Below, piece after piece: positions 1-9,801 of a DNA stretch of 64,000 nucleotides. The translations under genes and the position numbers were made by a program. Numbering within the stretch: position 1 is the first letter of the stretch; every line of letters starts with the position of its first letter. Source of the stretch: Nakamurella sp. (GTDB lineage Bacteria; Actinomycetota; Actinomycetes; Mycobacteriales; Nakamurellaceae). The notes beneath the pieces are model-generated. The model was not told where the DNA came from and did not search any database. It saw nothing but the letters and a program-made list of their open reading frames with translations. The DNA lies in assembly GCA_044223435.1 (NCBI GenBank), contig JBGALY010000011.1, positions 66,787 to 130,786 of the forward strand, written 5' to 3'.

Positions 1-1021
1 GGAGGTAGAACGGCACGCCGGCCCACCGCCAGTTGTCGATGCCGCACTTGAGGGCGACGAAGGTCTCGGTCTCCGAGTCCGGGGAGACGCCGTCCTCCTG
101 GCGGTAGCCGTTGTACTGGCCGCGGACGACGTCGGCCGGATCGATGGGCAGCATCGAGCGGAAGACCTTGTTCTTCTCCTCGCTGATCGCCCGCGGCTCC
201 AGAGCCGTCGGCGGCTCGATCGCGACGAACGCCATCACCTGGAACAGGTGGGTCACCACCATGTCCTTGTACGCGCCGGTCGACTCGTAGAAGCCGGCCC
301 GCTTGTCCAGGCCCAGGGTCTCGGGCACGTCGATCTGGATGTGGTCGATGAAGTTGCGGTTCCAGATCGGCTCGAACAGGCCATTGGCGAACCGGAAGGC
401 AAGGATGTTCTGCGCCGCCTCCTTGCCCAGGAAGTGATCGATCCGGAAGATCTGGCTCTCGTCGAAGACCTCGTGCAACTGCTGGTTGAGCCGGACCGCG
501 CTCTCCAGGTCGGTTCCGAACGGCTTCTCCATCACCACCCGGGCGCGCTCGACCAGCTTCGCCTCGTCCAGCATCTTCACGACGGCCAGTGCGGCCTTGG
601 GCGGCACACTGAGATAGTGCAGGCGGCAGACCCCCGGGCCGAGGGCAGCCTCGGCTTCGGCCACCGCGCGGGCGAGCGCCTCCGGCCCGGCGCCCTGCGG
701 CACGTAGCGCAGCCGTCCGGCGAACGTGTCCCAGTTCTCGATGTCCTTGGGGCGCGAGCTGAACTCGGCGACGGCCTGCCTGGCGAAGTCGCGGAACTGC
801 TCGGTGTCCATGTCCTCCAGGGAGGTGGCCACCACCTGGATCTCGGGCGTGAGCGCGGACAGCGACAGGTGGGTGAGCCCGGGCAGCAGTTTGCGGCGGG
901 CCAGGTCCCCGGTGGCGCCGAAGAGCACGACCACGTGCGGGACCAGGTGCTCGGCGTCCCGTCGGTAGGGCCGCGAGCCCGGAGCCGGGTATGCGATGGT
1001 CTGCGCATCGGGGGTGGCCAT
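1..1021 (-). CDS. zwf: Glucose-6-phosphate 1-dehydrogenase, N-terminal ~340 aa (3' end runs off the window)
   Basis: Reverse translation from ATG (cat at 1019-1021) gives MATPDAQTIAYPAPGSRPYRRDAEHLVPHVVVLFGATGDLARRKLLPGLTHL, which carries the G6PD GxxGDLA dinucleotide motif. It reaches ...VALKCGIDNWRWAGVPFYL at nt 1. It is absent from the ORF track because it is open at the window edge. Confidence 0.9.
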   Translation of the reverse strand, partial: MATPDAQTIAYPAPGSRPYRRDAEHLVPHVVVLFGATGDLARRKLLPGLTHLSLSALTPEIQVVATSLEDMDTEQFRDFARQAVAEFSSRPKDIENWDTFAGRLRYVPQGAGPEALARAVAEAEAALGPGVCRLHYLSVPPKAALAVVKMLDEAKLVERARVVMEKPFGTDLESAVRLNQQLHEVFDESQIFRIDHFLGKEAAQNILAFRFANGLFEPIWNRNFIDHIQIDVPETLGLDKRAGFYESTGAYKDMVVTHLFQVMAFVAIEPPTALEPRAISEEKNKVFRSMLPIDPADVVRGQYNGYRQEDGVSPDSETETFVALKCGIDNWRWAGVPFYL

Positions 1022-1316
1022 CGGTTGATGATCCCACCCCGGTCGGGCCGGCCCTCATCGGGTGCCGGTCTGGGCGGGCGCGACCGAGACCGGCGAACGC
1101 AGGTCGACGCCACGACAGATTCAGGAACGGGGTGTCCCGTCCTGACCGCCGGTGAAACGCTCTCCCCGGTGGAGTGTTCGGCTCCGGTTCTCCGTCAGCG
1201 CACGGGGACAACGAATCTCGGTGAATTTCCGCCCGGGTGTATCGCGCCGCCACCGCGGATCTCCTGATTCACGTTGCCGGACACAAGGTCCGGAACATCA
1301 TCCAGGAGGTCAAGGA

Positions 1317-1505
1317 ATGTTGGCGATGCCGACTGCCCCCGTCGCGGGCCGGTTCACCCGGACGCACGAGGGATACGTCCACCCCGAGCGGCTCGATCGT
1401 TGGGAGAAGCGGGCTTTCGCCTCGCTACCGCAGATGGCGCGGCCGAAGTGGCCGGGCGGCTCCATCTCCGGCTGCGACGACGGCTGGGACGACTGCGACG
1501 AGTAG
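1317..1505 (+). CDS. Putative ATP-grasp-modified RiPP (graspetide) precursor, 62 aa
   Basis: ATG at 1317 follows AGGAGG (ccAGGAGGtcaaggaATG). Product is MLAMPTAPVAGRFTRTHEGYVHPERLDRWEKRAFASLPQMARPKWPGGSISGCDDGWDDCDE. Third-position GC is about 90% (56/62 codons), typical of real coding sequence in this window. The acidic Ser/Lys/Cys C-terminal core sits directly upstream of the ATP-grasp gene. In frame with track ORF 1152..1505, but the upstream extension lacks an RBS. Confidence 0.75.
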   Translation: MLAMPTAPVAGRFTRTHEGYVHPERLDRWEKRAFASLPQMARPKWPGGSISGCDDGWDDCDE

Positions 1506-1545
1506 ACCGCGGCGAAGCGGTCCGATACAGCACGGCAATACCTCA

Positions 1546-1575
1546 CCGGTGGGGACCCTGCGGGGTCCCCGCCGG
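1546..1575 (+). terminator. Strong GC hairpin between precursor and maturase genes (candidate attenuator or partial terminator)
   Basis: CCGGTGGGGACCC-TGCG-GGGTCCCCGCCGG forms a 13-bp stem (one U.G wobble) with a 4-nt loop, followed by TCTT. It lies 41 nt after the precursor stop codon. A second weaker hairpin (GCGCAC..GTGCGC) lies at about 1583-1601. Confidence 0.4.
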
Positions 1576-1667
1576 TCTTGGTGCGCACCCGAGAGTGCGC
1601 GCCGAGCCTGAAGAACCCCTGAAGCAATCCTGAAATCAGACAATCTCCCGGGCACACCGGTGACCAT

Positions 1668-2639
1668 ATGGATAGGACGGCGGCAATGGCCGACATGGCA
1701 ATCGTGACGTTGGAAGGCGACATCCACGCGTACCTGGTCCGGCAGGCGATGGAGCGGACGCACGGCGTCGACGTCGCCATCGTCGCGGCGGACCGGATCC
1801 CGGCGGCCGGCGGCGTCACCTGGGACAACGAGAACCCCACGATGACCACGCTGCCCACCGAAGACGGTGGCACGGTCGACATCTCCCGGTTGCGCCTGGT
1901 GTGGTGGCGCCGGTGCCACGGCCGGCCCGAGGTGCCGGACTACGTCACCGACCGGGCCATGCGGCAACTCGTCGTCAAGGACAGTCGCGCCGCCACCCGA
2001 GGGGCATTCCTGGCCGCGTTCGGCGGGACCTGGCTCAGCGACCCCTACGCCACCGAACGTGCCCAGAACAAGCTGCTGCAGCTCCGCATCGCCCGGGCCG
2101 TCGGGCTTACCGTCCCGCGCACCCTGGTCAGCAACGACCCGGCCGCGATCCGCGAGTTCACCCGTCAGTTGGGCGGGCGCGTCATCGGCAAGACCCTCAC
2201 CGGACTGCTCGGCACCGGTCTGGAGGCCGGCCGGGTCGGATCGGATTCGCTGGCCGACGAGAACGAGCTGCGCCTGGCGCCGACGATCTACCAGGAGGAG
2301 ATACCGGGTACCGAGCATCTGCGGGTCCAGGTGTTCGGCCCCGACGTGTATGCGGCGAAGATCAGCAGCGCCGCCCTCGACTGGCGGCTGGCCGGCGACA
2401 TGCGGGTCGAGCCGGTCACGCTGCGCACGACCCTGCAGGACGCGTTGCGGTCGGTCGTGGACCGGCTCGGCCTGCGGATGGGGATCTTCGATCTCAAGGT
2501 CCGACCGGACGGTTCCGTGGTGTTCCTGGAGATCAATCCCCAGGGCCAGTTCCTGTTCGTCGAGGGAATGTCGGACATGCCGCTCACCGCGGCGTTCGCG
2601 CGATTCGCGGCCAATGAACTCGCCCTCGTCCCCGCCTGA
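1668..2639 (+). CDS. ATP-grasp ribosomal peptide maturase (RimK/MvdD-like ligase)
   Basis: 323 aa. The ATP-grasp pattern includes NKLLQLRIARAVGLTVPRTLVSND, VIGKTL, YQEEIPG..HLRVQVFG and IFDLKV..DGSVVFLEINPQGQFLF. It sits next to a small acidic-tailed ORF and an ABC exporter. Confidence 0.8.
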   Translation: MDRTAAMADMAIVTLEGDIHAYLVRQAMERTHGVDVAIVAADRIPAAGGVTWDNENPTMTTLPTEDGGTVDISRLRLVWWRRCHGRPEVPDYVTDRAMRQLVVKDSRAATRGAFLAAFGGTWLSDPYATERAQNKLLQLRIARAVGLTVPRTLVSNDPAAIREFTRQLGGRVIGKTLTGLLGTGLEAGRVGSDSLADENELRLAPTIYQEEIPGTEHLRVQVFGPDVYAAKISSAALDWRLAGDMRVEPVTLRTTLQDALRSVVDRLGLRMGIFDLKVRPDGSVVFLEINPQGQFLFVEGMSDMPLTAAFARFAANELALVPA

Positions 2640-4467
2640 ATCGGAACCCGGCGACCAGCGGGCCGGACTGCTCGGCCTGCTCCGGCGCGGTCTCCGGCTC
2701 GCCCGGGCGGGCGCGCCCAGGTTGTTCGTCGCCGTTCTGGCCGTGCAGGTCGTCGAGGCAGTGGCGGTGGTCGGGACCATCGCGGGCCTGCAACTCGTCA
2801 CCGCGGCCCTGCTCGGCGGGTCCGGGTCGGCGGGCCGCCCCGCGCTCGACGCACTGGTGGGGCCAGGGACGTTGCTGATGGCGGCCGTGGCGATCGGTGC
2901 GATCTGCCAGTCCGGACAGCCCGCGTTGGCCACCGTGCTCGGCGAACGGCTGGCCGCCGTGACCACCATCGAGGTGCTTCGGGTCGCCGGCACCATCCCA
3001 CTCGCCGACTTCGACCGCCCGGAGGTGTTGGACCGGCTCAAACGGGTCGAGTCCGGGTCGCTCGTGCGGCCCGCCCAGCTCGCCGTGGGCCTGGGGATCC
3101 TGCTGTCCGGTGCGGTCGGTGCGGCCGCGCTGACCGTTGCCGTGCTGACCGTGCAGCCCTGGTTGGCCGGGGTCGCGGTGGTGGCGGCCGTGCCGCTGTG
3201 GTGGGCCGCGCGCCGGGACGGCGCGCAGACCTACGAGACCGTGCGCGGGTTGTCCCGGCTGGAACGCCGGCGAATGTACCTGGCCGGACTGCTCACCCGG
3301 CGCGAGCGGGCGGCCGAGATCCGGGCCCTGGAGCTGACCCCGGTCCTGCTGGCCCGGTACGGCAGGTTGTCGCAGGAGCGCTGTCGCGAGGTCGCCGGCA
3401 CCTCCTGGGCCAAGGCCCGGCGGCAGCTGCGGGCGCGGGCCGCCGGCGGACTGGTGCTGGCCGCCGGCTTCGCCGCGCTGCTCGTCCTGCTGATCGGCGG
3501 CGACCTGCAGATCCCCGATGCGGTCGCGGCCGCCGCGGCCGGGGCGGCCCTGCGCAGCCGGTTGGCCGACGCCGCCACCGGCATCCGCCAGGTACAGGAA
3601 GCGGCCCAGTTCGTCGACGACCATGCCGCCGTCCTGGCCGCGGCGCCGCCCACCCCGGACGCCCGACCCGACGCCCCGGTCCGCGGCACCGGAGCCCACC
3701 GCGCCCTCGAGATCGCCCTGCACGGCGTGACGCTGACCTATCCGGGCACATCCGCCCCGGCCCTGCGCGACGTCGACCTGCGCCTGCGTACCGGTGAGGT
3801 GGTCGCGGTCGTCGGCGCGAACGGCTCGGGCAAGTCGACGCTGGCCGCCGTCCTGGGCGGGTTGCTGGTGCCGACCGGCGGAAGGGTGCTGTGGGACGGG
3901 ACCGACCGGGCGCACCTCGCCGCCGACCAATGGCGGCCGGACGTCGCCCTCCTGCTGCAGGACGCCGGGCGTTACCAGGAGACGCTGCGGGACAACGTGG
4001 CGTTCGGGGCCGTGCACCGACCCGGCGACGACGGGCGGATCCGCGCCGCCCTGGCCCAGTCCGGCGGCGAGAGCCTCCTGCGCCGGTACCCGGAGGGCCT
4101 GGACACCGACCTGGGCCGCGAACAGGACGGCGGCGCCGAGCTGTCCGGCGGTCAGTGGCAGCGAATCGCGTTGGCCCGCACCTTTTACCGCGGCGGCCGG
4201 CTGCTCGTTCTGGACGAACCGTCCGCGCCCCTGGATCCGGTGGCCGAGCGGGACCTGGTGGACCGGGTCCGGCGATCGTTCACCAACCGGGCGGTGGTGC
4301 TGATGACCCACCGGATGCCCGCGGCGATGGCGGCCGACCACGTCGTCGTCCTCGATCGGGGATCGGTGATCGAGCAGGGCGCTCCGGATGCCTTGCTGGC
4401 TCGGGGTGGCGCTTTCCACACCATGTGCCGGGCGGCCGAACGCCTCTGGGACCGGCAGGCCGCGTGA
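2614..4467 (+). CDS. ABC transporter, fused permease/ATP-binding exporter
   Basis: In-frame ATG at 2614 overlaps the ATP-grasp 3' end by 26 nt. It has an N-terminal TM region, Walker A GANGSGKST, signature LSGGQWQRIALAR and Walker B LLVLDEPSAPLD. The longer track ORF from 1867 is a wrong-frame extension through the ATP-grasp gene. Confidence 0.85.
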   Translation: MNSPSSPPESEPGDQRAGLLGLLRRGLRLARAGAPRLFVAVLAVQVVEAVAVVGTIAGLQLVTAALLGGSGSAGRPALDALVGPGTLLMAAVAIGAICQSGQPALATVLGERLAAVTTIEVLRVAGTIPLADFDRPEVLDRLKRVESGSLVRPAQLAVGLGILLSGAVGAAALTVAVLTVQPWLAGVAVVAAVPLWWAARRDGAQTYETVRGLSRLERRRMYLAGLLTRRERAAEIRALELTPVLLARYGRLSQERCREVAGTSWAKARRQLRARAAGGLVLAAGFAALLVLLIGGDLQIPDAVAAAAAGAALRSRLADAATGIRQVQEAAQFVDDHAAVLAAAPPTPDARPDAPVRGTGAHRALEIALHGVTLTYPGTSAPALRDVDLRLRTGEVVAVVGANGSGKSTLAAVLGGLLVPTGGRVLWDGTDRAHLAADQWRPDVALLLQDAGRYQETLRDNVAFGAVHRPGDDGRIRAALAQSGGESLLRRYPEGLDTDLGREQDGGAELSGGQWQRIALARTFYRGGRLLVLDEPSAPLDPVAERDLVDRVRRSFTNRAVVLMTHRMPAAMAADHVVVLDRGSVIEQGAPDALLARGGAFHTMCRAAERLWDRQAA

Positions 4468-4562
4468 CCGCCTGACGGCCGGCCCGCCGACCGGGCGCGG
4501 GCCGAGCTGTCCCGCTTCGTTCGGGTGCCGGCGGGCGGCGGGCACCTGGCAGACTGCCGGGC

Positions 4563-5495
4563 ATGCCTGAAGGCCATGTGACCCATCGCCTGGCGGCCGG
4601 GCTCACCGACCGGTTCGCGGACCACGCGGTCCGGTCGACCAGTCCGCAGGGGCGTTTCGCCGATGAGGCCGACGAGCTCGACGGTCAGCAGCTGAATTCG
4701 GCCGAGGCGTACGGGAAGAACCTTTTCGTGCACATCGGCGACCGGAGCGTGCATGTGCACCTCGGGTTGCTCGGCAAACTGACCTTTGCCGAGGCCGACC
4801 CCGGCGACCGGCCGATCCTCGGCCAGATCCGCTGGCGGCTGGAGAACGACCGATACTACGCGGACCTGCGCGGGCCGCAGGCCTGTCACCTCATCGATGC
4901 GGCCGGGATCGCCGCCATCACCGACCGGCTGGGCCCCGATCCGCTGCGCGAGGACGCCGACCCGGAGGTGGGCTGGGCCCGGGTGCACACGTCCGGGTCA
5001 CCGATCGGCCTGCTGCTGATGGACCAGCGGGTGGCTGCCGGGGTGGGCAACATCTTCCGCGCCGAGGTGCTCTACCGGCATCGCATCGATCCCGGCATGG
5101 CGGGCCGGTTGCTGCGCCGGGCGGAGTGGGAGTCGATCTGGACGGACCTGGTCGGGCTGATGCACGACGCGGTCGTCCGGGGGCGGGTCGACACCGTCCG
5201 GCCGGAGCACGGCCCGGAGGCCATGGGTCGACCCCCGCGGGTGGACCGGCACGGTGGTGAGGTGTACGTCTACCGGCGCGCCGACCAGCCCTGCCTGGTG
5301 TGCGGCACACCGGTCCGAACGACAGAGTTCGGCGGCCGAAACCTTTTCTGGTGCCCGAAGTGTCAGCGAACCAGTCGCCGAAAGGCACCAATTGCCGGGC
5401 CGCGGACCACCGATCCGGGCGATGCGGGACGAACCCGCGGGCAGCCGCTCACGCCGCGGACGCGCTCGGTCCGTCCGCCGGCACGACAAGGGTGA
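4563..5495 (+). CDS. nei: Fpg/Nei-family DNA glycosylase (endonuclease VIII, Nei2-type)
   Basis: N-terminus is MPEGHVTHRL (catalytic Pro2/Glu3). It has the H2TH segment LLMDQRVAAGVGNIFRAEVLYR and a C-terminal zinc finger CLVCGTPV...WCPKCQ. Confidence 0.9.
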   Translation: MPEGHVTHRLAAGLTDRFADHAVRSTSPQGRFADEADELDGQQLNSAEAYGKNLFVHIGDRSVHVHLGLLGKLTFAEADPGDRPILGQIRWRLENDRYYADLRGPQACHLIDAAGIAAITDRLGPDPLREDADPEVGWARVHTSGSPIGLLLMDQRVAAGVGNIFRAEVLYRHRIDPGMAGRLLRRAEWESIWTDLVGLMHDAVVRGRVDTVRPEHGPEAMGRPPRVDRHGGEVYVYRRADQPCLVCGTPVRTTEFGGRNLFWCPKCQRTSRRKAPIAGPRTTDPGDAGRTRGQPLTPRTRSVRPPARQG

Positions 5496-7848
5496 CCGTC
5501 GTTCCGCGACCCGGTGCGCTGCGCACGGTGAGCGAGCAACCCTCGGCCGCCGCGCGAGCCCGCATGGTCACCAGGCCGAGGCGGTCGGGTGTCGATTCCG
5601 GCCGATCGGCACCCACGCCGTCGTCGGCCACGGTGATCACGACGGACGAGCCGGCGCAGGTGATCGCGAGTTCGACGTTCGCGGCCCGCGCATGCCTTCG
5701 GGCATTGACCAGCGCCTCCCGAAGGATCCGGTAGGCCGTCTGCTTCCGGGCGGTCGTCAAGGCGACATGGTCGGGACCGACACAGTGCACCACCGTCCCG
5801 GTGCCGGTGAAGATGCCGTTCGCGAGCCGGCGCAACGCCGGGCCCAGACCGCCGTCGAGATCGGGCGGGGTGAGCGCGGTGATCAGCGTGCGCAGCCGAT
5901 CGACCGCGGCCTCGAGGCTCTCGATGAGTTCTTCGAAGACATCGTCGGGCTCGCCCAGGCGCAGACCCAGGGTCTCCAACCGCATGGCAACGGCAATGAT
6001 CAACTGCATCGGATCGTCGTGGATGGCCTCGGCGAGCAGAACCCGTTCCCGCTCCTCGACCTCGGCCAGTTGATCCAACAGTTCACGCTGCTCGACGGTC
6101 TGCTGGAGCAGCCGACCCGCGATCGCCGTGCGCTCGCTCCGCTGCTGCTCGGCCCACGCCTCGGCCCGTCCCTCGCTGATCGCGGTGCCGACGCGATCGG
6201 CGAGCACCTGCAGGAGGTCCTCGTCCTCCTGGGCATAGGGTGGTCCCGACCGTCCGCGAAACACGCCGAACACGCCGAGGACCGCGCCGGCGTGCCGGAC
6301 CGGCACCACGACGTCGTCACCGATGACATGGTCCAGGGCCGCGGAGCGCGGGATGAGCTGCCCGCCGACCCACCCGGCCGCGTCGGTACCGACCGGTCGC
6401 CGGGTCGCCCGGATCCCGGGCCCGCCGTGGTCGGTCGAGTCGCGGGCGCCGGCCACCAGCAGTTCGCGGATCGCCGGATCGACGTGGGCGACGGTGCTGC
6501 TCTCCACGCCGTGCCCGTCCGGCCGCATGATCCGCAGCAGGGCACCGTCGCCGAGGCCGGCCGCCGCGACGTCGACGATCCGTTCGAGCTTCTCGGCGAG
6601 CGAATGTCGATCGGTGGCCAGCAGGTCGCTGATCCGGCGCAGCAGGACCGTGCGCTTGCGTGCCGCCGCAGCCCGGGCCGCCTCGGCCGTCCGGCGCGAA
6701 TGGACGGCCTCGGTGATGTCCGCATGCGTGATGACCGCGCGCAGCAGTTCGCCGCCGGGATCGACGACCGCGTCGCAGACCGCGCGGACATGGCGCAGCT
6801 CGCCGCTGCGGCCGTGCCGCAGGCGGTACTCCATGCCGTCGCGGCCGCCTTCTGCGAGCACCCGCGCGAATCGCTCGCGGGTGCGGCCGCGATCCACGGC
6901 GACCACCAGATCGTCGACGCTGCGCAGCGCCTGCTCGTTCGTGTCGACACCCAGCAGATCCAGCAGCTTGCGGTCGAATTCCCAGCCGGTGCCGACCTCG
7001 TAGCGGCAGGTTCCGACGTTGCTCAGCTCCTGGGTCTGTTCGAGTTGGGCCTGGCGCAGCCGTTCCGCCGAGACGTCCTCGGACAGGATGATCCCGCCGA
7101 CGATGCGGCCGTCGGGGGACCGGACCGGGCGTCCTCGGATCCGGTACCGGGCATCGGTCTGTGGGCTGCGGTAGTCGACGTCGCTCGCCCTCCCGAGCAG
7201 TGCCTCCCGGATCGGACCTTCCATCGGGGTCAGCGCGGCGGGCGGAAGCACCTCGGGCAGCGGCCGCCCCCGTACGTCACCGATGTCGTAGCCGAACCGC
7301 CGGATCAGGGCCCCCCCGAGCACCCGGATCCGCAGGTCCTGATCGAACGAGAGCACGGTCGAGTTGGGCAGGTTCTCCACGACGTCGCGGTACATCCGCT
7401 CGCCGGCGACCAGGGCCCGTTCATGTTCCCGGATCTCCGTGACGTCCCGCATCTGCAGCAGGTGGAACTGCCGATTCCCGCGGTCCGTCATGGGATCCGC
7501 CCGGATCTCCACGATCAGCCGGGCGCCGGTGGCGGATACGAGCACACCATCGCGTTCGTTGTGGCTGACCTGGCCCGCCCGCAACCGGGCGGCGTTGCGC
7601 CGGGCCTGCGCCGCCGATTCGGGCGTGTGGAAAGCGGTGAGGTCGCGACCGCGGAGGTCGGCCACCCCCAGCATCCGGTGCGCGGCCAGGTTCGCCACCA
7701 CGATGGTCAGGTCCTCGTCGACGACCAGCATCGGCACGATCGAACGCACGAAAGCCGGCTCGTGCGCCACCTCGAGCCGGCCCGGCGGCACGTCCGCATT
7801 CTCGGGGACCTCCCGACCACCCGGCAGCGCAGACATGATGACCCCCAT
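5449..7848 (-). CDS. Sensor histidine kinase with multiple PAS and GAF domains, HisKA_3 and HATPase (NarL-partner type), no adjacent response regulator
   Basis: HisKA_3 box ERERVLLAEAIHDDPMQLIIAV is present, as is the ATPase end GRGTTVTLVVP. PAS-like segments occur repeatedly (e.g. LVVDEDLTIVVANLAAHRMLG). The chosen start is MGVIMSALPGG at 7848. The track ORF extends to 8256, but that N-terminal extension is low-complexity. Confidence 0.8.
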   Translation of the reverse strand: MGVIMSALPGGREVPENADVPPGRLEVAHEPAFVRSIVPMLVVDEDLTIVVANLAAHRMLGVADLRGRDLTAFHTPESAAQARRNAARLRAGQVSHNERDGVLVSATGARLIVEIRADPMTDRGNRQFHLLQMRDVTEIREHERALVAGERMYRDVVENLPNSTVLSFDQDLRIRVLGGALIRRFGYDIGDVRGRPLPEVLPPAALTPMEGPIREALLGRASDVDYRSPQTDARYRIRGRPVRSPDGRIVGGIILSEDVSAERLRQAQLEQTQELSNVGTCRYEVGTGWEFDRKLLDLLGVDTNEQALRSVDDLVVAVDRGRTRERFARVLAEGGRDGMEYRLRHGRSGELRHVRAVCDAVVDPGGELLRAVITHADITEAVHSRRTAEAARAAAARKRTVLLRRISDLLATDRHSLAEKLERIVDVAAAGLGDGALLRIMRPDGHGVESSTVAHVDPAIRELLVAGARDSTDHGGPGIRATRRPVGTDAAGWVGGQLIPRSAALDHVIGDDVVVPVRHAGAVLGVFGVFRGRSGPPYAQEDEDLLQVLADRVGTAISEGRAEAWAEQQRSERTAIAGRLLQQTVEQRELLDQLAEVEERERVLLAEAIHDDPMQLIIAVAMRLETLGLRLGEPDDVFEELIESLEAAVDRLRTLITALTPPDLDGGLGPALRRLANGIFTGTGTVVHCVGPDHVALTTARKQTAYRILREALVNARRHARAANVELAITCAGSSVVITVADDGVGADRPESTPDRLGLVTMRARAAAEGCSLTVRSAPGRGTTVTLVVPADGPSASAA

Positions 7849-8077
7849 CACCCCGACCCGTGGAACACGCAGCGTAGTCAGTTGATCACAGTATCGACCC
7901 TGGCCGTACGGCGCCCCGGCATCCGGGCGGACGACTGCCGGCTCCACCGATCGGCGGACCCCGGGACCGACCACTGCCTCGGCCGATCGACCGAGGCCGT
8001 GGCCGGGGGTTTCGCCGGACAGTGGAGCCATCGCAATCCGCACGCACGGGCCGACCGGACCGGAGGACTGACCAACC

Positions 8078-8848
8078 ATGACGCTGCCGACCATCACCGC
8101 CGACCCGACCCGGGTCGACGCCGCTCGCGAACCCATGGGCGGCAACCTCGTCGACGGGCCCACCCCACCGGTCCCGGCCGTGTCCACACCCGGGGACCGG
8201 GGCGGCCGGCGATCCGGCCGGTGGACCGCCACCCTGACCTTCGCCGTGCTCGTCACCTTCGGCGTGATCCTCTGGGGTGGCTACACGCGGGGCTGGGCGT
8301 GGACCGGCATCAACGCGAAGGACACGCTCTGGCACTGGCTGCAACTGCTGCTGGTGCCGATCGCCTTCGCGGCCCTGCCGACGTTGTTGCGGCAGCACCG
8401 GGAAATGCGCACGGAACGCAAGCTCCTGATGGCGGGACTGACGGCGGCCTTCGTCGCGTTCGTGATCGTCGGGTATACGGTGCCGCTCACCTGGACGGGA
8501 TTCACCGGAAACACCCTGTGGGACTGGTTGTCGCTGTTGCTGTTGCCCATCGCGATCACCGGCGTGCGGTTCCTGCGCGCCGAGCGGACCATCACCTGGC
8601 TCCACTACGGCGTCGGGGCCCTGCTGCTGGCGGCGTTCGGTCTGCTGATCGCGTGCGGATACCTGGTGCCGTGGGCGTGGACCGGATTCACCGGGAACAC
8701 GTTCGTCGACTGGGTGCAGCTGCTGATCCTGCCCGTGCTGTTCCCGACCATCGTCGTGCCGGCCACCGCCGCCTGGCTGACCGCGACGACCGGACGGCCC
8801 AAGCACGGACGCGGGACGCCCGTCGCGGATCGGGGCGAGTGCCGGTGA
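8078..8848 (+). CDS. Integral membrane protein with three internal repeats (function unknown)
   Basis: 256 aa. A W-rich motif occurs three times: GYTRGWAWTGINAKDTLWHWLQLLLVPIAF, GYTVPLTWTGFTGNTLWDWLSLLLLPIAI and GYLVPWAWTGFTGNTFVDWVQLLILPVLF. Each copy is followed by hydrophobic helices. Confidence 0.7.
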   Translation: MTLPTITADPTRVDAAREPMGGNLVDGPTPPVPAVSTPGDRGGRRSGRWTATLTFAVLVTFGVILWGGYTRGWAWTGINAKDTLWHWLQLLLVPIAFAALPTLLRQHREMRTERKLLMAGLTAAFVAFVIVGYTVPLTWTGFTGNTLWDWLSLLLLPIAITGVRFLRAERTITWLHYGVGALLLAAFGLLIACGYLVPWAWTGFTGNTFVDWVQLLILPVLFPTIVVPATAAWLTATTGRPKHGRGTPVADRGECR

Positions 8849-8880
8849 CGCCGCCGTGAACCGTCCACCCCGGGCAGCGG

Positions 8881-9801
8881 TCAGGCCGCCCGGCGACGGG
8901 TCGCCGCCGACTGGCCGGTCGGCAGCCGCAGGTATCGCTGCGGCGTACCCGCCGCCACCAGCAGGTGGGCGGTCCGCTCGTGCTCATGCTCGACGCTCAA
9001 CGCGGCGATGTAGAAGGGCGCCAGGACGCCCTGCGGACGCCGGCGGCCCAGGCTGAGGTAGCCGAAGCGAAACCAATCGGGCACCACCCGGACGTCGTCG
9101 GCCGCGCCGTCCCGGAACGCTGTGACGAGTTGACCGACGATGTCGCCGGCGGCCTCCGCCGGGGGCCGAACCTTCGCCCGATCCAGCGTCGTACCGGGCT
9201 CGTCGCCGGCCAGCCGGCGAGCCGACACACTCACCGCCGCAAGCCGACCCCCCGCGGCGAGTTCGACGGTCGCGCTGGCCCGGCCGTAGACCGGCAGATC
9301 CCGGGTCACCTGCCGGAAGGCGCCCACGGCCCGGCAGAGGATGGCGGGGGCGACCTGGCCCGTGCGGTCCCCTCCCGCCGCCTTGATGCGCCACAGCCGC
9401 TCGAATTGCAGATCGTCCTCGGACGGGATCAGCTCGGGCAGCCCGAGCGACTCGGCCGACCGGATCACCAGCGCGCCGAGTTCTTTGTCCCCGGGGTCCT
9501 CGCCGACGACGTCGTCGAATGGATCAAGACCGAGCGACACCGTCATCGCTCCCGAGGCGTGAAATCCGACCGCGCGGAGGGCGGCGGGCCCCGACAGGAC
9601 GCTTCGGGCTTTCTGGTTTTGGAGTCTGAGATCGCCCAGCCGAAGGCCGGCCACCTCGGCGACCGACCGGAGAAGCCGGGCGGCCCGCCGCTGCACGGTC
9701 CCCAGGTCCGGCGGCGGGAGCTCGATGACGTCGGCGACGTCCGGGACGGTATCGATCAACGAGACCAGGCGTTCGGTCAGGGTTTCGGCGAACAGTGGCA
9801 T
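8881..9801 (-). CDS. Hypothetical protein (306 aa), partner of the His/Cys protein upstream
   Basis: ATG at 9801 is preceded by GGAGGG (ccGGAGGGccatcATG). Product starts MPLFAETLTERLVSLIDTVPDV... I recognised no family. The track ORF 8881..10308 over-extends through the upstream gene. Confidence 0.6.
   Translation of the reverse strand: MPLFAETLTERLVSLIDTVPDVADVIELPPPDLGTVQRRAARLLRSVAEVAGLRLGDLRLQNQKARSVLSGPAALRAVGFHASGAMTVSLGLDPFDDVVGEDPGDKELGALVIRSAESLGLPELIPSEDDLQFERLWRIKAAGGDRTGQVAPAILCRAVGAFRQVTRDLPVYGRASATVELAAGGRLAAVSVSARRLAGDEPGTTLDRAKVRPPAEAAGDIVGQLVTAFRDGAADDVRVVPDWFRFGYLSLGRRRPQGVLAPFYIAALSVEHEHERTAHLLVAAGTPQRYLRLPTGQSAATRRRAA

Follow-up and report, generated by a model that had tools for sequence, protein, structure and literature searches.

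The subject of this analysis is a three-gene locus in a 64-kb stretch of actinobacterial DNA (64,000 nucleotides of contig JBGALY010000011.1, hereafter the window). A gene for a 62-amino-acid (aa) precursor peptide (1317-1505) is followed on the forward strand by an ATP-grasp ligase gene (1686-2639) and by the gene of an ATP-binding cassette (ABC) exporter (2614-4467). The locus is probably a biosynthetic cluster for a graspetide, an omega-ester-linked peptide made by the ribosome and modified after translation (RiPP), of an actinobacterium close to Nakamurella, and its precursor belongs to a family that published catalogues already list. We base this reading on the identity of the ligase, the conserved precursor adjacent to it, the purifying selection seen in the precursor gene and matches in those catalogues. 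A preliminary description of the same DNA had proposed a graspetide locus with an unusual core and a disulfide; the observation is borne out and was in the main interpreted correctly, but the family has been catalogued before and the disulfide is not conserved.

The ATP-grasp ligase

The longest open reading frame (ORF) with ATP-grasp similarity runs from 1668 to 2639. Because the ATG at 1668 is not kept in the closest relative (locus L001; loci outside the window carry L numbers), where ATATCG replaces it, and because the homologous ligases are 317 aa long, the true start is probably the ATG at 1686 (MADMAIV...), which is preceded by GATAGGACGG. The resulting 317-aa protein (1686-2639, forward strand) matched NCBIfam hidden Markov models of graspetide ligases over their full length, with E-values of 2e-48 for TIGR04187, 5e-44 for MvdC and 2e-40 for MvdD. 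All solved structures that it matched by sequence at E<=0.01 are graspetide macrocyclases, among them MdnB (1.7e-36), MdnC (1e-29), AMdnB, PruB, CdnC and PsnB. An AlphaFold2 model of the ligase had a predicted local distance difference test (pLDDT) score of 92 and a predicted template modelling (pTM) score of 0.89. When this model was compared with known structures by Foldseek, it aligned with MdnC carrying its bound precursor at a TM-score of 0.86, and the best 32 matches were all graspetide ligases, RimK structures following at rank 33 and lower with a TM-score of 0.69. By sequence and by predicted fold, the enzyme is a graspetide macrocyclase. Its scores lie under every curated cutoff (165 of 350 bits for TIGR04187, 151 of 425 for MvdC and 139 of 475 for MvdD, and likewise 33.6 of 143.4 for rimK_fam), and it is therefore placed outside those named NCBIfam subfamilies.

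The precursor gene

The ORF at 1317-1505 (forward strand) encodes MLAMPTAPVAGRFTRTHEGYVHPERLDRWEKRAFASLPQMARPKWPGGSISGCDDGWDDCDE. Its ATG lies 7 nt downstream of the ribosome-binding site AGGAGG (1304-1309), which is part of a 5' untranslated leader at 1288-1316 (forward strand) whose first base is a candidate transcript 5' end. G+C content at third codon positions (GC3) is 0.90 in the precursor and 0.91 in the ligase and ABC genes, while the intergenic stretch has an overall G+C content of 0.65. Compared with its orthologue in L003, the precursor gene differs at 22 nucleotides, of which 20 are third codon positions; 18 of the resulting codon changes are synonymous and 2 are not. Within the last 16 codons, 4 changes are synonymous and none alters an amino acid. 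With a gene-like GC3 and differences that are mostly synonymous, the ORF behaves as a gene, and the substitution pattern identifies it as a real one under strong purifying selection. The strong ribosome-binding site and coding-like bias of the preliminary description are both borne out, as are the residues that it counted in the last 20 aa (5 Asp, 1 Glu, 2 Ser, 1 Lys and 2 Cys).

Alignment of the close clade and of distant precursors assigns aa 1-48 (1317-1460, forward strand) to a leader region, and conservation across 36 loci and published sequences delimits the core SISGCDDGWDDCDE (aa 49-62), which together with the stop codon occupies 1461-1505 (forward strand). Two conserved motifs lie in the leader, P-V-A-G-R-F (aa 8-13) and L-D-x-W-E (aa 26-30). 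As PVVFxF and L.xWE they are also found in precursors that stand beside ligases of 42-48% identity and in published precursors of the type of graspetide group 28, and in the general forms P-V-[VA]-x-x-F and L-x-x-W-E they are retained out to the most distant relatives. P46-G47-G48, immediately ahead of the core, is invariant in the close-clade alignment. When the 62-aa peptide was searched against Pfam and NCBIfam at E<=0.1, no model matched; this includes TIGR04186, the precursor model that the preliminary description had pointed to together with TIGR04187, which the ligase does match, though below its cutoff.

Conservation of the precursor-ligase pair

Relatives of the ligase were sought by a scan of one genome per species, which returned 25 loci. 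These come from metagenome-assembled genomes (MAGs) of Nakamurella, with ligases 87-92% identical to that of the window, which make Nakamurella or a close relative the probable source of the DNA, from Jatrophihabitans, Lapillicoccus, Terrabacter and Humibacillus, from further MAGs of Propionibacteriales and Micrococcales, and from two Pseudomonadota. By tblastn, a small ORF was present immediately 5' of the ligase in all 24 of the genome loci that cover the upstream flank, so that the conservation on which the preliminary description had staked its claim holds throughout, the two Pseudomonadota included. Ten further loci from genomes and metagenomes (L026-L028 and L030-L036), whose ligases are 42-48% identical, likewise have a precursor upstream, and these precursors carry the same core and leader motifs as the window. 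In an all-against-all clustering of six-frame ORFs, the precursor and the ligase were the only genes common to all loci. When the precursor alignment was used as a profile in an exhaustive search, only 12 representatives came back, a number that does not gauge the size of the family since such small ORFs are rarely called. An MvdC/MvdD-like ATP-grasp ligase is thus found next to a co-conserved precursor that has a leader and a core with Ser/Thr/Lys and Asp/Glu residues, the combination by which graspetide clusters are recognised.

The two Pseudomonadota loci, L022 (a Rhizobacter MAG) and L024 (a Pseudomonadota MAG), have the same pair at about 3770-3913, with ligases 46-47% identical and cores of the form C-x4-C-GSISGSG[NS]GWDDSDQ that include an extra upstream Cys pair; their sequences point to transfer across phyla. 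In L032 (569-3061), a graspetide-type ligase stands directly 5' of rpsF-ssb-rpsR-rplI, which we regard as a curious coincidence.

Transcription and RNA structure

The locus is present in metagenomes from activated sludge, bioreactors, biofilms and freshwater and in four biofilm metatranscriptome runs, and it is transcribed. In metatranscriptome X11, a separate 247-nt contig covered 1288-1534 at a word depth of 902, whereas the flanking contigs had depths of 40 (ending at 1317) and 68 (starting at 1618), which makes the precursor region about 13-20 times deeper. A contig joined to adapter sequence ended exactly at 1288, giving a sharp end, and no contig of this run crossed 1535-1617. Run X12 showed a 2-5-fold bump within the precursor ORF. 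Some of the flat RNA background may be DNA carry-over.

Two strong G+C-rich hairpins are predicted by RNA folding in the gap between precursor and ligase (1545-1576 and 1578-1605, forward strand), the fold having a free energy of -79.4 kcal/mol and a z-score of -4.4. The first hairpin, GGTGGGGAnCC-N4-GGGGTCCCCACC, comes directly after the precursor stop and is kept throughout L001-L003 of the Nakamurella clade, with a T-rich tract behind it in L003. These hairpins are probably an attenuator, a terminator or a 3' structure that stabilises the mRNA. A simple promoter and terminator scan of 900-4800 returned nothing, with no sigma-70-like promoter upstream of 1288, and no Rfam model matched within 900-4700 at E<=1. 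An abundant precursor message that is attenuated ahead of the enzyme genes fits the usual RiPP arrangement.

Core conservation and proposed ring topology

Residues that are invariant in the close clade fall into an N-terminal part (R12, F13, R15, Y20, P23, L26, W29 and E30) and a C-terminal part (P46, G47, G48, S49, I50, S51, G52, G56, W57, D58, D59, C60 and D61). Over all the sequences collected, the core consensus is [S/T]-[I/M]-S-G-[S/C]-loop-[W/Y]-D-D-[C/S/A]-D, in which a variable loop of 2 to 7 residues separates position 53 from the aromatic residue. S51 and D59 occur in every sequence. Position 49 is Ser or Thr in all but L026 (Gly), D58 is Gly in one of the two Nonomuraea copies (L031), and D61 is lost in L026 (Ile) and in L036, which ends at DD. 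Past WDD[SC]D the C-terminus is unconstrained: E, K, I, YW, YMP and AG all occur, and one peptide stops at DD. The candidate ester donors are S49, S51 and C53, and the candidate acceptors D58, D59 and D61. Conserved donors at i, i+2 and i+4 (S49, S51 and S/C53) opposite these three Asp residues suggest a hairpin closed by nested macrolactones, and the loss of donor 49 together with acceptor 61 in L026 is what a 49-61 ring would predict.

Three other assignments within the core region were considered and rejected. An amide ring through Lys44, which the preliminary description had allowed for by naming Lys as a possible nucleophile, is unlikely and was set aside since Lys44 is not conserved; the first Asp pair, D54-D55, was set aside as acceptors, not being conserved beyond the close clade; and Cys60 was set aside as a nucleophile on account of the Ala found there in L033.

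By analogy with characterised graspetide systems, biosynthesis might proceed as follows. The 62-aa precursor would be made from the abundant short transcript, and the ligase would bind its leader through PVAGRF and LDxWE, as MdnC, PsnB and CdnC suggest. Using ATP, the ligase would phosphorylate Asp side chains of the C-terminal W-D-D-x-D strand, and Ser side chains of the S-I-S-G-S/C strand would then attack the phosphorylated Asp residues. The expected product would have two or three nested side-chain macrolactones stapling a small hairpin with a variable loop, the likeliest partners of S51 and S49 being D59 and D61, and that of position 53 being D58. After modification, the peptide would be exported by the co-translated ABC transporter, and a protease encoded outside the locus would remove the leader, possibly after the invariant PGG.

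In L031 (Nonomuraea), two divergent precursor copies are present, at 3267-3476 (reverse strand) and 4001-4210 (forward strand); one of them has the sequence WGDCD, with Asp58 changed to Gly, and may be a natural test of acceptor use. The distant precursors of L032 (250-558) and L035 (806-1120) and the protein P0146 start with an apparent Sec signal peptide, and Cys residues stand on both sides of their core (RC-ETISGSANGWDDSRLD-C); they may form a subtype that is routed through Sec and closed by a disulfide.

Several observations weigh against the graspetide reading or against parts of it. The ligase falls under the curated cutoffs of all NCBIfam graspetide models, and its match to the Pfam MvdD pre-ATP-grasp domain is under the gathering score. 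On the RNA side, three of the four runs are reckoned as flat, X2 and X14 since each gives a single long contig for which only a mean contig depth is available, and contig depth from assembled metatranscriptomes is in general a weak measure of expression. Most relatives have no linked exporter; the locus has no protease gene and its exporter no peptidase domain to account for leader removal. As for the rings, Arg stands at position 61 in L032, L035 and P0146, with an Asp two residues on, the covariation of positions 49 and 61 comes from one sequence, and ring number and connectivity are read from residue patterns and not from chemistry.

Alternative readings of the ligase and of the Cys pair

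The ATP-grasp enzyme could in principle be RimK-like and extend the acidic C-terminus of the small protein by further amino acids, a reading that we hold to be very improbable. RimK is a distant ATP-grasp relative that modifies ribosomal protein S6, which the acidic tail DDCDE of the precursor recalls; RimK-family models do match the ligase, albeit weakly (E = 2.5e-8), and the ligase of L032 adjoins rpsF. However, the matches to graspetide models surpass those to RimK by 35-40 orders of magnitude, the rimK_fam score is far below its cutoff, the TM-score to MdnC exceeds that to RimK, and a C-terminus that is variable past WDD[SC]D is unsuited to be a C-terminal acceptor site. The other alternatives concern the two Cys residues of the core. 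Of 28 close loci, 11 have C/C at positions 53 and 60, about 12 have S/C and 5 have S/S; the combination C/S does not occur. Position 53 is Ser in most sequences and Cys in the 11 close loci, in protein P0145 and in L036, with Arg in L035 and Asn in a Paenibacillus sonchi precursor; position 60 holds a small residue, Cys, Ser or Ala (Ala in L033), and residues 54-55 are elsewhere GN, GS, ND, NE, NG or WD instead of DD. The paired CDD/CDE boxes which had suggested a disulfide to the preliminary description are thus a feature of some loci, DD 54-55 being variable as well. In the alignment, Cys53 and Cys60 do not co-vary like a disulfide pair, and with Ser or Ala at 53 or 60 a bridge is impossible in most family members.

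A Cys53-Cys60 disulfide that serves as a designed second cross-link beside ester or amide rings is an unlikely reading that has some points in its favour: both Cys residues occur together in the 11 close loci, Cys53 is never combined with Ser60 in the close clade, ABC export probably delivers the peptide to an oxidising environment, Cys pairs flank the core in the distant L032, P0146, L035 and Intrasporangium oryzae, and in C/C variants a disulfide could take the place of the innermost ester ring. Against such a design speak the S/C and S/S loci, the difference at position 53 between two near-identical strains, Terrabacter sp. 2RAF25 with C/C and sp. 28 with S/C, the Ala60 of L033, and L036, which has Cys53 yet stops before position 60. 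The lack of C/S is also not significant, with Cys60 present in about 22 of 25 loci (p ~0.25), and the amide rings of this proposal suffer from the missing conservation of Lys44. Cys53 might instead be a ring nucleophile in place of Ser, which would make the product a natural side-chain thioester (omega-thioester) macrocycle. Alternation of Ser and Cys at position 53, with Ser in most relatives from Actinomycetota to Pseudomonadota, is the pattern expected of interchangeable OH and SH groups, and ester-forming graspetide ligases are reported to accept substituted nucleophiles and to give thioester products efficiently (PMC12291112). On the other hand, thioesters are labile, Arg53 in L035 and Asn53 in Paenibacillus sonchi indicate that position 53 is maybe not a ring donor, and a search of the literature on graspetides and thioesters returned engineered thioesters with no natural example; we consider a natural thioester decidedly unlikely. 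For this organism in particular, either a Cys53 thioester macrocycle or a Cys53-Cys60 disulfide that replaces the innermost ester ring is a long shot on the residue pattern. Either one, if true, would be a cross-link type unreported for native graspetides, and the natural S53/C53 variants (Terrabacter sp. 28 and sp. 2RAF25) offer a ready-made comparison. Nested macrolactones formed by a graspetide ligase remain the preferred reading of the core.

The exporter and leader removal

The first in-frame ATG of the ABC gene, at 2614, gives it an overlap of 26 nt with the 3' end of the ligase gene, as the preliminary description had noted, and the two are probably translationally coupled. The gene (2614-4467, forward strand) encodes a 617-aa exporter in which the transmembrane and nucleotide-binding domains are fused; it matched ABC_tran of Pfam (8.6e-26) as well as numerous NCBIfam models of exporters. 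Motif scanning placed about 6 predicted transmembrane segments within residues 30-310, and further on the Walker A (401), LSGGQ (510) and Walker B (530) motifs. No peptidase domain was detected on it by Pfam and transmembrane scans. Since the first transmembrane segment begins near residue 32, there is no space for a C39 domain of about 130 aa. The exporter therefore does not have the N-terminal C39 peptidase of a peptidase-containing ABC transporter (PCAT), although the precursor has the invariant PGG, which looks like a double-glycine site ahead of the core.

An exporter gene lies directly 3' of the ligase in the window, in L001-L003 and in L006, L016 and L020, that is, in 7 of 26 loci with the window counted. 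A different ABC exporter, 31% identical to that of the window, follows the ligase in L030 and L031; because this identity is of a generic level, the exporters of the two clades were probably recruited separately. Judged by its distribution, the exporter is an accessory part of the unit and not a constant one, so that the precursor/maturase/exporter layout of the preliminary description holds for this locus, while only the precursor-ligase pair is constant among its relatives. The overlap of the two genes, and exporter genes that recur independently in two clades, suggest that the ABC transporter exports the peptide. In L020 (4083-6444, from a long-read MAG), the ligase and ABC genes are each broken across three reading frames, and the precursor, with S53 and the end CDK, is intact; the split genes are either pseudogenes or indel errors of the assembly.

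Flanking genes and other features of the window

The locus is flanked by housekeeping genes: on one side that of a glucose-6-phosphate dehydrogenase (2-1021, reverse strand), on the other those of a DNA glycosylase of the Fpg/Nei type (4563-5495) and of a histidine kinase with PAS/GAF domains (5449-8256, reverse strand). Second copies of the precursor, ligase or ABC gene were sought throughout the window and none was found, and there is no methyltransferase gene within 1-9000. Many long overlapping ORFs occur in all six frames of the same 1-9000 region (e.g., 5254-8859 on the forward strand and 2584-4545 on the reverse strand); they are shadows typical of DNA with 72% G+C and not genes. Fifteen bases at 4485, between the ABC gene and fpg, are absent from all four metatranscriptome assemblies, a small indel polymorphism of the population.

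Significance of the locus

The locus offers a compact candidate for characterisation, since its precursor is short and has nothing past the core, and one ligase and a linked exporter complete it; the evidence for high precursor transcription in wastewater-type biofilms adds to its standing. The natural alternation of Ser and Cys at two core positions amounts to a built-in experiment on the nucleophile tolerance of graspetide ligases. Apart from this, the locus adds a further RiPP cluster to a class that is well understood, and its one interesting point is the chemistry of Cys53. The literature searched for the group 28 and cluster5178 family contained no structure, ring topology or activity, and a search for graspetides of Thermomonospora, Actinomadura, Microbispora, Intrasporangium and Actinospica found no characterised member.

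Comparison with known systems

Among solved enzymes, MdnC and MdnB (PDB 5ig9 and 5ig8), AMdnB (7m4s), PruB (9bou), CdnC (7mgv) and PsnB (7drm) share the fold and enzyme class of the window ligase, at TM-scores of 0.74-0.86, E-values of 1e-16 to 1e-36 and identities of 23-29%. Microviridin maturases and the other solved systems also share with the window a leader-dependent ATP-grasp logic. PFFARFL is the microviridin leader motif, and the PVAGRF of the window recalls it. In its core, however, the window has no TxKYPSD, TTxxxxEE or other characterised motif, and the locus differs from those of microviridins in having a single ligase and no acetyltransferase. Without a TxKxPSD-type core and with MvdC and MvdD scores below cutoff, it falls outside the microviridins (group 1). 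The view of the preliminary description that the core is unlike those of microviridin, plesiocin and thuringinin is correct, but the core is not new, as the catalogues show.

The stem-loop graspetides fuscimiditide and amycolimiditide (group 13 graspimiditides) are hairpin-stapled. The architecture proposed for the window, as suggested by its residue pattern, would resemble theirs in setting hydroxyl donors (S-x-S-x-S) against an Asp strand round a loop. Unlike them, the locus has no O-methyltransferase gene, no TIGR04186 match and a TIGR04187 score below cutoff, and it thus lies outside the SAV_5884 or TIGR04186-TIGR04187 family (groups 11 and 13), which often includes an O-methyltransferase of the PIMT type.

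Precursors of the Streptomyces aureofaciens type (PMC8939145) and of group 25 (Carter et al. 2026) share with the window the leader pattern P.V...QP ... PEEL..WE and a core rich in Ser, Cys and Asp. Their cores contain many more Cys residues (SCSCGCSDDCCVDC) and no ISGS...WDD motif, and group 25 clusters, unlike the window, carry extra unknown proteins (PMC13097080). The core of L015 (about 3805-3972), GTISCSSCGCDDCDE, looks like a transition from the ISGS..WDD family to the Streptomyces cores of group 25 with their many Cys residues. The shared leader pattern hints that the ISGS..WDD and the Cys-rich Streptomyces precursors form one superfamily.

The closest published entry is cluster5178, listed by Makarova et al. 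2022 (Biol Direct, PMC8939145) in their supplement, which consists of a single predicted precursor from Intrasporangiaceae bacterium URHB0013. Its core, WPGGSISGCDDGWDDCDE, is identical to that of the window and its leader motifs are the same (ARFTRSHEGY.HP..LDAWE); its locus is our L008, the ligase of which is 68% identical to the window ligase. It differs from the window in its genus, in a precursor identity of about 64% and in having no adjacent ABC exporter, and it is a bioinformatic listing with no product known. The same supplement contains precursors of Actinomadura, Actinospica, Intrasporangium and Microbispora with ETISGSGDGWDDCD-type cores.

Graspetide group 28, with 120 precursors, was defined by Carter, Ramesh, Saad, Mubarik and Mitchell 2026 (ACS Chem Biol, PMC13097080), where groups 27, 28 and 35 are described as synthetase and precursor only and group 28 was not characterised. 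Its representative precursor, from Thermomonospora amylolytica, ends in ETISGSGDGWDDCDYMP and has LAQWE in its leader (PMC13097080 Fig. S5); the corresponding parts of the window precursor are GSISGCDDGWDDCDE and LDRWE, an instance of the shared L.xWE motif. The window core SISGCDDGWDDCDE also matches the group motif ISG[SC]xxxWDD[CS]D (..ISGSxDGWDDCD.. in Fig. S5), so that core and LDRWE together place the peptide in the Fig. S5 family. The window peptide is shorter (62 aa compared with 68-74 aa), stops right after the core and has Cys53. The group-28-type loci L030 (Actinomadura macrotermitis) and L031 (Nonomuraea) repeat the gene order of the window, from precursor through ligase to ABC exporter, and their ligases are 42% identical to the window ligase (235 bits for L030). 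Estimated similarity-network scores for the window ligase are about 66 with L030 (235 bits) and about 73 with L028 (260 bits), the first just below and the second above the published alignment-score threshold of 70; the ligase may sit in a network cluster separate from group 28, or may be joined to it through intermediates. The precursors themselves, compared in core and leader, clearly belong to the same family as those of group 28.

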